Positions 599 through 10,035 of a DNA stretch of 29,643 bases are shown here, in pieces. Below the pieces are notes generated by a model that was not told the origin of the DNA, did not search any database, and saw only the letters and a program-made list of their open reading frames with translations. Made by a program: the position numbers and the translations under genes. The stretch spans positions 1-29,643 of the forward strand of contig JAZNMD010000181.1 of the NCBI GenBank assembly GCA_045579385.1, in the 5' to 3' direction. The DNA is from Clostridia bacterium (GTDB lineage: Bacteria; Bacillota; Clostridia; Monoglobales; Monoglobaceae). How positions within the stretch are numbered: position 1 is the stretch's first letter; each line of letters opens with the position of its first letter.

Positions 599-633
599 AA
601 AAAAATTAAAACAATATATATTTTTTAAAGGAG
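599..633 (+). repeat. 35-bp perfect direct repeat, copy 1 (ends in an SD sequence but no start codon follows)
   Basis: AAAAAAATTAAAACAATATATATTTTTTAAAGGAG, identical to 808-842. Confidence 0.95.
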
Positions 634-807
634 CCGCAGCGTTAAGAAAACAATCCAGTGAATTGTTTTTAGCGAAGGATTGTGAAAACAGAGATGTTTT
701 CACTGTTAAAAGAAAATCCGTAAGGATTTTTACAATAGCATCCGACGAGAAAAATGCGGACAGCGTGATTCTTAAAGTGGCTTCGAAATAAATATTCATA
801 ATGTTGT
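634..807. other. Hairpin-rich insert between the two 35-bp repeats
   Basis: Stems AAAACAAT/ATTGTTTT (647-669), GTGAAAAC/GTTTTCAC (682-703) and AAAATCC-GTAA-GGATTTT (713-730), with a possible closing stem CCGCA(634-638)/TGCGG(755-759). Confidence 0.6.
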
Positions 808-842
808 AAAAAAATTAAAACAATATATATTTTTTAAAGGAG
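808..842 (+). repeat. 35-bp perfect direct repeat, copy 2 (contains the functional RBS of the S-layer gene)
   Basis: Identical to 599-633. AAAGGAGG is followed by ATG at 854. Confidence 0.95.
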
Positions 843-853
843 GATTTGAGACT

Positions 854-3800
854 ATGTTAAATCTCAAAAAAGTGATTGCTTCTATTTGCGTTATCGCTAT
901 GATGCTCACAACTGTTGCTTTTGGTGCAACATACAGTGACGTTACAGAAGACAGTGCATATTATGAAGCAGTTGAAACACTCAACAAACTCGAAATCGTT
1001 ACAGGTTACGAAGACGGTACTTTTAAGCCTGAAGACGGCGTTACAAGAGCAGAAATGGCTGCGCTTATCGCTCGTATCCAGGGCTATGGCGAAACAGCTA
1101 AGGCTTCTGCTAACACAGCATTTACTGATGTACCTGCTAGCCACTGGGCTTCCGGTTACATTGCAAACGCTGCTGGCCTTCGCATCATCAACGGCTATGG
1201 CGACGGAACATTCGGTCCTGAGGATCCGGTTAAGTACGAACAGGCTGTTAAGATGGTTATGGCTACACTTGGCTACACACCTTTTGCTGAAAAGAACGGT
1301 GGTTACCCCGCAGGCTGGCTCGCTGCAGCTCAGAGATACGATGTATCACTTGCAGTTGCTAACGCAGCAGTAGGTCAGGATGCTAACCGTGGTACAGTTG
1401 CTCAGCTTCTTGAAAACGCTCTTGACACACCTCTCATGGTTCAGTCAAAGTGGAACACCAATGGCGAAGTTGAATACGAAATTGCTGATGGTAAAGATAA
1501 GAGAGATTACAAAACTCTTATGAGTGAAAACCTTGGCTACGTTAAAATTCGTGGTGTTGTTGAAGATGCTGACTGCATTTCTCTTGCAAGCGAAGGCGAA
1601 ATCACACTTAACACTTCTAACACAGGCAAAGACAAGGGCCCTGGCATCTGGATTGATGTAAAGGATGCTTACAAGACAAACAACTCAGACTTCTATGACA
1701 ACAATGGCAACTTGAAGGCTGCTGCTGATCGTACCTACTACACAGGCGGTATGGACATAGACGAAGGTGCATATCTTGGTAGAAGCGTAATCGGTTATGC
1801 TAAGAAAGATGCTATGGATGACTATCAGCTCGTTTCTATCGCTATTGATACAAACAGAGATGATACTCTCGTAATTGATCTTGATTCATATGCTGGCATC
1901 AATGCTGCTGGTACAGAAATCAGCTATGTTAAAGATGGCGCAAACGATACAACAGAAGTTGATATTGATTTTGATGCACCCGTAGTATACAACAATGTAT
2001 GTGTTTCTGATGGTGAAAATATAGTTGCTGGCAACAATGTAAACAATAACAAGGCTGTATTTGATGCTGCTATTCCTTCAGTTCCTTGTCTCTATGGTGG
2101 TACGATCACTCTTATTGACAATGACGAAAACAATGGTTATGATGTAGCTATCATCGAAGCAGCTGCTACAGCAGTTGTTAAGAAGGTTACAGAAGATATG
2201 GTTGCTTTCAAGACAGGCACAACTCTTTCAAATGGTAACGTAATGGCTGGTATTGAACTTGGCCGTGAAGACAAGATTGTTGAAATCTACAAAGATGGCG
2301 AATTAATTGACGCTGCAGAACTCAACGAATGGGATGTTCTCTCAGTTATCGCTAACAAGGATAACTCAACAATTATCGTTGCTGAAGTTGTTACAAATCA
2401 GATTATTGGTACAGTTACATCAACAAAGACTTCAAAGACTTCTGCTACAAAGGCATACAAGATTGAAGATACTTGGTATGATGTTGCAACAAGCGCTTAC
2501 AAAGCAGGCGTAAATGACCTTGAAATTGGTGTAGGTGGTACATTCTACATTGACAAGTATGGCAAGATTGCTGCATTTGACGAAGATAGTGCTCTTGCTG
2601 GTGGCGCTGCTGCTAACTATGGTTATGTTGCTGCTGTTGAAGCTAAGGTTGCTGACTTCTCAGGTGATGGATACGCTGCAAAGGTTCAGATGGTTACAGC
2701 TGACGGTGTAGAAGTTCTCACACTTAAGAAGAACGCTAAGATTAATGTAGCAGTAGACGCTGTAAATAATACAACTGGCGCAGCTGGTGCTGATGGAAAC
2801 ATGGATACATGGACAATCGATTCAACTGGTTGGGCTGCTGCTGATGTAGTTGTTGATATAACAGCTAGTGGCGAAGGCGCTGTAACAGGTACACAGGATA
2901 CTGTTCTTGAAGACTTGATTGTTGCTCTTAAGGGATATGTTGTTAAGTATACTAAGAACTCAGCTGGTCAGATTTCTGAAATCACAGTTGCAGGTCATGA
3001 CAATGACAAGTTTAAAGTTATGACTACTACTGACAACACTTCTGCTGAATTTGATGCTGACAACAGCAGATTTACAAACGGCGGCGGTTATGTAGACGAA
3101 GATGCTATCGTATTTATCATTGGTGGTTTCACTGGTGGTGCTGGTAACACAAGCATAACTGACAGTAAGGTTGGCACACTTGCAGACCTTGATGACGAAA
3201 ACATATACACACTTGCTGCTAAATATGCTGATGCTAAGGCTGACGATTGCAACATTATCGTTATCGATGCTGATACAGTTGCAACAAGCGCAACATCTGG
3301 TCTTGCTGTTATTACAGAAGTTGGCGAAAGCACAAATGATGATGGCGAAGCTATCTACATCCTCAGCTACTATGTTGACGGCGAACTTAACGAAGGCGTT
3401 TCTTCAATCGCTAAGACAGACCTCGGCGTAGCACTCACAGCTGGTGACGTTGTTAAGGTTAAGGTTGGCAGCGATGGTCTTATCTCAGATATCAAGATGG
3501 TATTTGACTTTGCTACAGATGTAAGAACAGCTTACAACGATTCTACTACATTGGTTTCAATGGCTACAAACGCTAACGATACAACTACAAAGGAAATCTT
3601 TGCTGGTGGTACAGTTGTTGCTTACAAGGATAGCTCAACACTTGCAACAATTTACACAGATTATGTAACTGGTACTGACGGAAACAAGGAATACAAGCTC
3701 AGCCAGGCTGAAAATGTATACGTAATCGACGGTACAGGTCTTAACATGACTGTAAAGGTTGGTTCAGATGCTAACTTCAGAGCATTTGAAAAGCTTTATG

Positions 3801-4006
3801 ATGGTACTGCAAATGTTACTGCTTACCTTGATGACGTAGCTTTAGGTACATTCGTAATGGATGGTACAACAGATACAGATGGCAACGGAACAACTGACAA
3901 GGAAGAAGCTCAGTCTTATGCTGACCACGTATATGTAAGAGCTTACGAAGGTAAGGTTAAGGATGTTATCATCGTTAAGACAGACGCTGACCTCAGAATT
4001 AAATAA
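854..4006 (+). CDS. S-layer homology (SLH) domain protein, probable major S-layer protein (1050 aa)
   Basis: Sec signal peptide (MLNLKKVIASICVIAMMLTTVAFGA). SLH repeats ...GYEDGTFKPEDGVTRAE, ...HWASGYI...GYGDGTFGP, and a degenerate ...NRGTVAQLL. Acidic, Ala/Thr/Asp/Gly-rich body; strong codon bias; multiple consensus promoters. Confidence 0.9.
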   Translation: MLNLKKVIASICVIAMMLTTVAFGATYSDVTEDSAYYEAVETLNKLEIVTGYEDGTFKPEDGVTRAEMAALIARIQGYGETAKASANTAFTDVPASHWASGYIANAAGLRIINGYGDGTFGPEDPVKYEQAVKMVMATLGYTPFAEKNGGYPAGWLAAAQRYDVSLAVANAAVGQDANRGTVAQLLENALDTPLMVQSKWNTNGEVEYEIADGKDKRDYKTLMSENLGYVKIRGVVEDADCISLASEGEITLNTSNTGKDKGPGIWIDVKDAYKTNNSDFYDNNGNLKAAADRTYYTGGMDIDEGAYLGRSVIGYAKKDAMDDYQLVSIAIDTNRDDTLVIDLDSYAGINAAGTEISYVKDGANDTTEVDIDFDAPVVYNNVCVSDGENIVAGNNVNNNKAVFDAAIPSVPCLYGGTITLIDNDENNGYDVAIIEAAATAVVKKVTEDMVAFKTGTTLSNGNVMAGIELGREDKIVEIYKDGELIDAAELNEWDVLSVIANKDNSTIIVAEVVTNQIIGTVTSTKTSKTSATKAYKIEDTWYDVATSAYKAGVNDLEIGVGGTFYIDKYGKIAAFDEDSALAGGAAANYGYVAAVEAKVADFSGDGYAAKVQMVTADGVEVLTLKKNAKINVAVDAVNNTTGAAGADGNMDTWTIDSTGWAAADVVVDITASGEGAVTGTQDTVLEDLIVALKGYVVKYTKNSAGQISEITVAGHDNDKFKVMTTTDNTSAEFDADNSRFTNGGGYVDEDAIVFIIGGFTGGAGNTSITDSKVGTLADLDDENIYTLAAKYADAKADDCNIIVIDADTVATSATSGLAVITEVGESTNDDGEAIYILSYYVDGELNEGVSSIAKTDLGVALTAGDVVKVKVGSDGLISDIKMVFDFATDVRTAYNDSTTLVSMATNANDTTTKEIFAGGTVVAYKDSSTLATIYTDYVTGTDGNKEYKLSQAENVYVIDGTGLNMTVKVGSDANFRAFEKLYDGTANVTAYLDDVALGTFVMDGTTDTDGNGTTDKEEAQSYADHVYVRAYEGKVKDVIIVKTDADLRIK

Positions 4007-9846: not shown

Positions 9847-9922
9847 GGGCGCATAGCTCAGCTGGGAGAGCATCTGCCTTACAAGCAGAGGGTCATAGGT
9901 TCGAGCCCTATTGTGCCCACCA
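9847..9922 (+). tRNA. tRNA-Val(TAC), copy 1
   Basis: 76-nt cloverleaf; anticodon arm TCTGC-CTTACAA-GCAGA; GGTTCGAG T-loop; encoded CCA. Confidence 0.97.
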
Positions 9923-9959
9923 TTCCTTTTAACAAGCAATTCAATAGAGCCAATTATGT

Positions 9960-10035
9960 GGGCGCATAGCTCAGCTGGGAGAGCATCTGCCTTACAAGCA
10001 GAGGGTCATAGGTTCGAGCCCTATTGTGCCCACCA
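9960..10035 (+). tRNA. tRNA-Val(TAC), copy 2 (identical to copy 1)
   Basis: Same 76-nt sequence, 37-nt spacer from copy 1. Confidence 0.97.

Follow-up and report, generated by a model that had tools for sequence, protein, structure and literature searches.

A small folded insertion element in the leader of a clostridial S-layer gene carries a putative guide segment antisense to its insertion site

An insert between exact repeats in the S-layer leader

We analysed a 29,643-nt stretch of DNA (the window) from G000, a MAG with a 1.24-Mb assembly that is 79% complete. Related contigs are from Clostridia, one of them from Monoglobaceae, and where a source is named it is a herbivore gut sample. The locus of interest is the 5′ leader of a gene for an SLH-domain surface protein, whose homologues carry the name S-layer homology domain proteins. 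Downstream of the gene's promoter, the leader contains two identical 35-bp sequences 209 bp apart, only the second of which is followed by a start codon (ATG at 854); both points had been made in a first-pass annotation and were borne out by sequence comparison. Exact repeats of at least 35 bp with a period of 100–600 bp occur only six times in the assembly. The features of the locus, all on the + strand, are as follows.

438–467, +: host promoter of the SLH gene, sigma-70-type and conserved (12/12 consensus match; near-identical −35 and −10 boxes in orthologous leaders)
599–633, +: repeat copy 1 (X1), the end of the original host leader, with G633 as the insertion junction (exact repeat; orthologous leaders)
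633–734, +: three-hairpin scaffold, the core of the family, sharing G633 with the junction (covariance model R1, 104 bits)
634–678, +: hairpin H1, with a 2-nt AA bulge and a basal purine-rich internal loop (covariation)
682–703, +: hairpin H2, with a GAGA tetraloop (covariation; GNRA in 103 of 131 copies)
713–730, +: hairpin H3, with a GTAA loop (predicted fold; the loop varies within the family)
740–756, +: putative anti-target ('guide') segment, antisense to the insertion junction
741–760, +: local hairpin able to hide the guide, kept in all five S-layer-site elements
757–807, +: spacer, of which 785–807 is a diverged copy of the S-layer leader (19/23 match to an empty-site leader)
808–842, +: repeat copy 2 (X2), the element-side copy of the target end (exact repeat)
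854–4006, +: SLH-domain surface protein of 1,050 aa, a probable S-layer protein and the host target gene (Pfam SLH, 3.7e-31)

The working Shine–Dalgarno (SD) sequence of the SLH gene, at 837–843, is supplied by X2, and the duplication extends in diverged form beyond the exact 35-mer to about 785. The insert folds better than shuffled sequences, with z scores of −4.8 as RNA and −3.2 as DNA. Three hairpins had been proposed between the repeats. Compensatory changes among family members back H1 and H2, whereas H3 is weaker and poorly aligned. The GTAA loop is present at H3 here. A proposed CCGCA/TGCGG closing stem did not hold up, being unused in the minimum-free-energy fold; covariation pairs 634–635 with 677–678, and the TGCGG lies inside the local hairpin at 741–760. 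Taken together with the guided-insertion mechanism described below, the 209-bp unit at 634–842 is probably a non-autonomous miniature insertion element that comprises a scaffold, a guide and an element-borne copy of the target end.

Upstream of the main S-layer promoter, a second promoter-like site (302–330) and a conserved block (385–435) are kept in all orthologues and may be tandem promoters or an operator. A REP-like double hairpin, separate from the element, lies in the same leader at 514–567, a spot that holds similar or other REPs in G013, G004, G034, G041 and G033. Positions 1–223 encode a C-terminal fragment of a REP-associated tyrosine transposase (RAYT; NF047646, E 6e-10) with its own GTAG-tagged REP hairpins at 24–46 (− strand) and 221–243; its place is taken in most relatives by a GIDA-family (trmFO-like) gene and in one by a probable DUF559 gene. 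After the S-layer gene, several relatives have a Y1 transposase-like gene of about 250 aa (L339, 4051–4797; L343, from 5403). Two tandem tRNA-Val(TAC) genes, 113 bp apart, lie at 9847–10035 of the window.

Distribution, targets and lateral movement of the scaffold family

Orthologous leaders were compared across the genus. Among 28 leaders, 23 were empty, with one repeat copy and no insert, and five carried the element (G000, G033, G034, G007 and G039), two of them, G039 and G007, as tandem arrays of two or more units; the carriers are scattered on the tree. The closest S-layer allele found (89% amino acid identity) is an empty site. The leader ranges from 102 to 510 nt across orthologues and contains unrelated REP-like inserts in several genomes, and it therefore tolerates structured insertions.

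A covariance model built from the scaffold, which is about 102 nt long, detected it in all 33 genomes of the genus with 1–19 copies each (five in G000), and of 33 genera sampled in the order, 2 had it by a stricter pattern. Outside the genus, a class-wide search that scored 33 candidates per genome gave at least one strong copy in another family and at least some weaker matches sharing H1. In an alignment of 21 copies, 94.7% of cells were paired and 19 of 31 pairs had changed on both sides; slid controls came to about 44%. In 136 of 137 copies the + strand gives the better fold of the two strands, which identifies it as the predicted functional strand and is compatible with both RNA and single-stranded DNA. 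Rfam scans of the window and 27 loci gave no family matching the scaffold, viral contigs gave no match to the scaffold pattern, and JGI metagenomes gave no G000-type repeat; the H1 pattern occurred in three JGI contigs, and the one inspected shares the H1 hairpin only.

The 5′ boundary of the scaffold is sharp and is preceded by G in 131 of 137 copies. An exact repeat of at least 20 bp ends at this junction in 41 of 109 evaluable copies, compared with 16 of 1,590 random positions, and the duplications range from 11 to 111 bp. One scaffold serves 18 site groups. The recurring targets, with gene names read from the sequences, are 5S rRNA and the T-arm regions of several tRNAs; among protein genes, the tsf and ppdK 3′ ends and the prfB and S-layer starts; and REP hairpins. 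The scaffold is antisense to the gene at the tsf and ppdK ends and sense at the S-layer and prfB starts. Wherever both repeats are visible, the element is oriented such that its repeat rebuilds the end of the gene; X2 completes the tRNA, tsf, ppdK and S-layer ends, so that the interrupted gene is intact. Copies in REP hairpins are often without a duplication.

Some copies depart from this plan. In L308 around 14400 (G004:C11:78304-78404, − strand) and in L309, the scaffold lies at the extreme end of a probable aldolase gene and appears to provide its stop codon, with no duplication. One tRNA-Arg copy, at L306:616-1410, has a gene for a four-helix-bundle protein (TIGR02436) lying between its guide and its repeat, and the unit can therefore carry cargo. 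A divergent scaffold subfamily sits at the ssb start and the rpsI end (L028 and L043), each with a duplication. In other families of the class (L086, L089, L090, L092, L094 and L095), there are elements that share H1 but have a mirror architecture: the tRNA T-arm copy on the 5′ side of the scaffold is inverted, and the direct copy is on the 3′ side. In G000 itself (C129:4383-4700), the 3′ part of a tRNA is duplicated (57 bp) on either side of an unrelated-looking hairpin array of 201 nt, which probably represents a further family of this type.

We next compared the carriers at the S-layer site. G000 and G033 share 99 of 102 scaffold positions (97%) and 81% of their spacers, against 61% identity at fourfold-degenerate sites of pta and ackA and 80% over the first 600 bp of the S-layer gene. 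In G039, a closer relative of G000, the scaffold at the same junction is 66% identical, and scaffolds of S-layer-site carriers differ by as much as a third. On a tree of two genes, pta and ackA, restricted to genomes with both in full plus G007 (partial ackA), the five carriers require five changes, and a single clade was rejected (p-AU 3e-5). The 35-bp repeats of G000 and G033 match at 32 of 36 positions, yet are identical within each genome, and the G000 repeat resembles the empty allele of its own lineage. In G034 and G007 the insertion lies 2 nt upstream, with a homologous guide. Because a 97% identical scaffold contrasts with 61% identity at fourfold sites, and each genome has an exact repeat of its own sequence, this comparison points to lateral homing between the two species. 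Scaffolds at least 95% identical share a site in 22 of 22 cases, and none of the copies compared combined a near-identical scaffold with a freshly written guide, as re-targeting in progress would. At the ppdK and tRNA sites the second repeat copy travels with the element. These sequence patterns indicate site-specific lineages that move laterally and have their repeats homogenised later.

The first-pass annotation had suggested an undescribed small structured mobile element among its readings, and proposed searching the genome and its relatives for other copies with long flanking duplications. That reading is upheld by the sites that are empty in relatives and by the existence of well over 100 further copies, many with long flanking duplications; tandem arrays and incongruent inheritance also favour it. 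No description of the scaffold family was found in the literature, in full-text searches that covered few subscription papers. The data support a family of small, gene-less, folded and mobile elements, of which we could find none described.

An anti-target segment and comparison with known systems

Just 3′ of H3, at a fixed distance after the scaffold, lies a segment antisense to the element's own insertion junction. The longest stretch of the tail that matches the reverse complement of an element's own junction averaged 6.2 nt, compared with 3.8 nt for permuted targets and 3.7 nt for a same-sense control covering the tail region only; these and the other guide statistics overstate independence, since copies at one site are kin. 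For 9 of 18 site groups the best-ranking target was their own, and the junction lay opposite element position 107–111 in 43 of 54 well-paired copies. Pairing between guide and target runs past the junction (2.88, against a permuted maximum of 2.47). Of the 16 copies that are informative because their two repeats differ, 14 have a guide that matches X2 more closely than X1, and guides vary along with target variants at the tRNA-Pro, tRNA-Arg, tsf, ppdK and 5S sites. The guide is short (about 6–17 nt) and interrupted, and roughly one copy in four shows little or no complementarity. In the window, 740–756 pairs with 842–845 across the junction and with 828–835, around a purine-rich loop, in a predicted duplex of −9.1 kcal/mol; three other S-layer-site carriers that were tested give the same duplex shape.

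IS200/IS605 transposons are not known to duplicate their target on insertion, and PATEs are gene-less derivatives of these single-strand transposons. IS608-type members resemble the present element, as proposed here, in their folded single strand, strand-asymmetric hairpin and choice of target through base pairing with the element (PMC5934647, PMC6006769). The natural IS608 guide, however, is 4 nt, lies 5′ of the hairpin foot and recognizes a conserved tetranucleotide, whereas the segment here is longer, lies 3′ of the scaffold and is site-specific; the IS608 guide can be engineered to 12–17 nt (PMC5934647, PMC6006769). A strand-biased fold and an anti-target segment are present here with different placement and length. 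The element does not fit a PATE or MITE of this family well: there is no conserved tetra- or pentanucleotide target (only the G at −1 is fixed), 11–111 bp are duplicated, no cognate Y1 gene is adjacent, and PF01797 is not commoner in carrier genera, as judged from incomplete MAGs.

The IS110/IS1111 elements with bridge or seek RNAs, and MITEPpu9, are similar in having a structured non-coding module, a target-complementary patch, gene-less derivatives and insertion into REPs (PMC12288879). Here, in contrast, no transposase is adjacent or co-distributed, only one target strand is matched, and the duplication is long rather than a dinucleotide core. A bridge-RNA element was rejected on the same-sense control, which was at background (3.7 nt, tail only), on the long repeats and on the distribution of DEDD transposases, which do not follow the element.

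At tRNA 3′ ends, tyrosine-integrase islands and CIMEs, bounded by attL and attR, restore the interrupted gene end with the element's own copy and accrete in tandem. The present element likewise restores its target gene with a copy it carries. Unlike the islands, it has no integrase, is about 200 bp long, varies in repeat length at one site, and places one scaffold at many unrelated targets including mRNA starts and the ends of protein genes. The attL/attR-type origin raised in the first-pass annotation gained no support, with no integrase among recurrent neighbours and no fixed att core across the 18 site groups.

REP, REPIN and BIME repeats associated with RAYTs are also small, palindromic, multicopy, lineage-restricted and clustered in tandem (PMC6006769, PMC3333891), and the RAYT fragment lies 400 bp upstream of the element. 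A REPIN was rejected: the scaffold consensus has no GTAG/CGTC tag or inverted REP doublet, and RAYT/Y1 genes do not track it. A derivative of a retro-element or group II intron was likewise set aside, since reverse transcriptase (RT) genes do not track, the strands mismatch and no Rfam intron matches. The Gut-1 RNA motif is a hairpin-array repeat of gut Clostridia found in the same genomes (RF01706; PMC2864571); its matches lie at other coordinates, and the scaffold does not match its covariance model. Overall, the element is likest to base-pair targeting of the IS608 or bridge-RNA type combined with the gene-restoring habit of tRNA islands, and differs from each in its defining features (PMC5934647, PMC6006769, PMC12288879).

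Mechanism, alternatives and meaning

We think it likely, though short of firm, that the guide on the folded strand pairs with the target and that strand exchange at the G, carried out by an enzyme supplied in trans, brings in the scaffold together with the guide and the target copy. As regards the chemistry, we infer that the element would act as a folded single strand, DNA or RNA, whose guide would pair with the target strand across the junction before strand exchange. Tandem arrays would arise by re-insertion or unequal exchange, and the two repeats would be made identical within each host by copying or gene conversion. A broader proposal, tentative and rather unlikely in our estimation, is that these elements form a distinct, gene-less and naturally re-programmable class, in which a scaffold of about 100 nt and a 3′ guide would steer integration of a single strand to a G within practically any gene end that is conserved, through a host or phage enzyme not so far linked to mobility or through catalysis by the folded strand itself.

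We searched for a candidate enzyme. ORFs around about 160 copies comprised housekeeping neighbours only, with no mobilizing protein, and the longer flanks listed included no autonomous version. A motif scan of G000 ORFs returned only the RAYT fragment and one IS200-like ORF. RT genes occur in 8 of 32 genomes of the genus, about as often as in genera without pattern hits, and do not track the element; Y1/RAYT genes (PF01797) occur in 19/32 and 2/10 genomes of carrier genera versus 16/24 and 14/21 in genera without pattern hits, and IS110 DEDD transposases in 9/32 and 1/10 versus 10/24 and 9/21, all of these being family-level tests on incomplete MAGs in which a specific subfamily could still track.

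The alternative with most in its favour, possible although we regard it as unlikely, is a REP-like mobile repeat with one precise end and no guide function. The antisense segment and the long duplication would then be by-products of insertion, through fold-back or template-switch repair, retained as essential gene ends stay intact, and later spread would reflect homologous recombination or gene conversion at conserved sites. Many copies do lie in REP hairpins and lack a duplication, and at such sites the opposite arm of a pre-existing hairpin can account for the 'guide'; the targets are conserved loci, favouring recombination, and no dedicated enzyme tracks the element. However, the fixed register, the G–U wobbles and the way in which guides follow later substitutions in X2 suggest that pairing is maintained, and what was transferred at the S-layer site spans less than about 300 bp, flanked by homology that is short and imperfect.

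Far less probable is a SINE-like retro-element that entered through target-primed reverse transcription, in which case the 35 bp would be a long target-site duplication. The pattern of one sharp and one variable end, the spread of duplication lengths and targets in highly expressed genes would suit it. Priming at the sharp end, however, needs the opposite strand as template RNA, whereas the structured strand is almost always the + strand, and at the ppdK and tRNA sites X2 is not a copy of recipient sequence but moves along with the element. Together with the RT distribution and the lack of an Rfam intron match, this leaves the retro-type origin in the first-pass annotation without support.

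We also considered whether the insert is a domesticated, recombination-removable leader cassette, with a decoy ribosome-binding site (RBS) and structure, that switches S-layer expression, as had been suggested. Deletion between the repeats would give a normal leader, unit number varies, and the guide can pair with the SD region, a pairing predicted to dominate in G034 (opening cost 10.6 versus 7.6 kcal/mol). Against this, the predicted cost of opening the SD-to-ATG region in G000 is 6.95 kcal/mol with the insert versus 7.36 kcal/mol without it, and removing the unit in silico changes it little in G033 and G039 as well, leaving only G034 with a predicted occluded RBS; the first SD lacks a start codon, and the same family occurs at unrelated and antisense sites. 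A programmed switch is very unlikely on these sequence comparisons and folding predictions, because presence is patchy (absent from 23 of 28 leaders) and the scaffolds are divergent, not being conserved between carriers, in leaders that also tolerate unrelated REPs. An assembly artefact is scarcely credible even in a MAG of this completeness, since four other independently assembled genomes have the same arrangement, each with its own repeat sequence.

Returning to guided insertion, the element at the S-layer locus would, as part of that explanation and with the same fair confidence, be a tolerated passenger in the leader. We speculate that the hairpin that can hide the guide, present in all five carriers, may make this site tolerable.

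The S-layer site indicates that the family is bound neither to tRNAs nor to one direction of transcription, and it provides a case of movement between species with a repeat that matches the recipient. If the antisense segment selects the target, the element would be a natural base-pair-guided insertion system of about 200 bp that has no sequence relationship to bridge RNAs or to the ends of IS608, and the search for its enzyme would have a definite and testable aim. Should the segment be no more than a scar, the family would still explain common duplicated gene ends in gut Clostridia, which are easily misread as att sites or regulatory switches.
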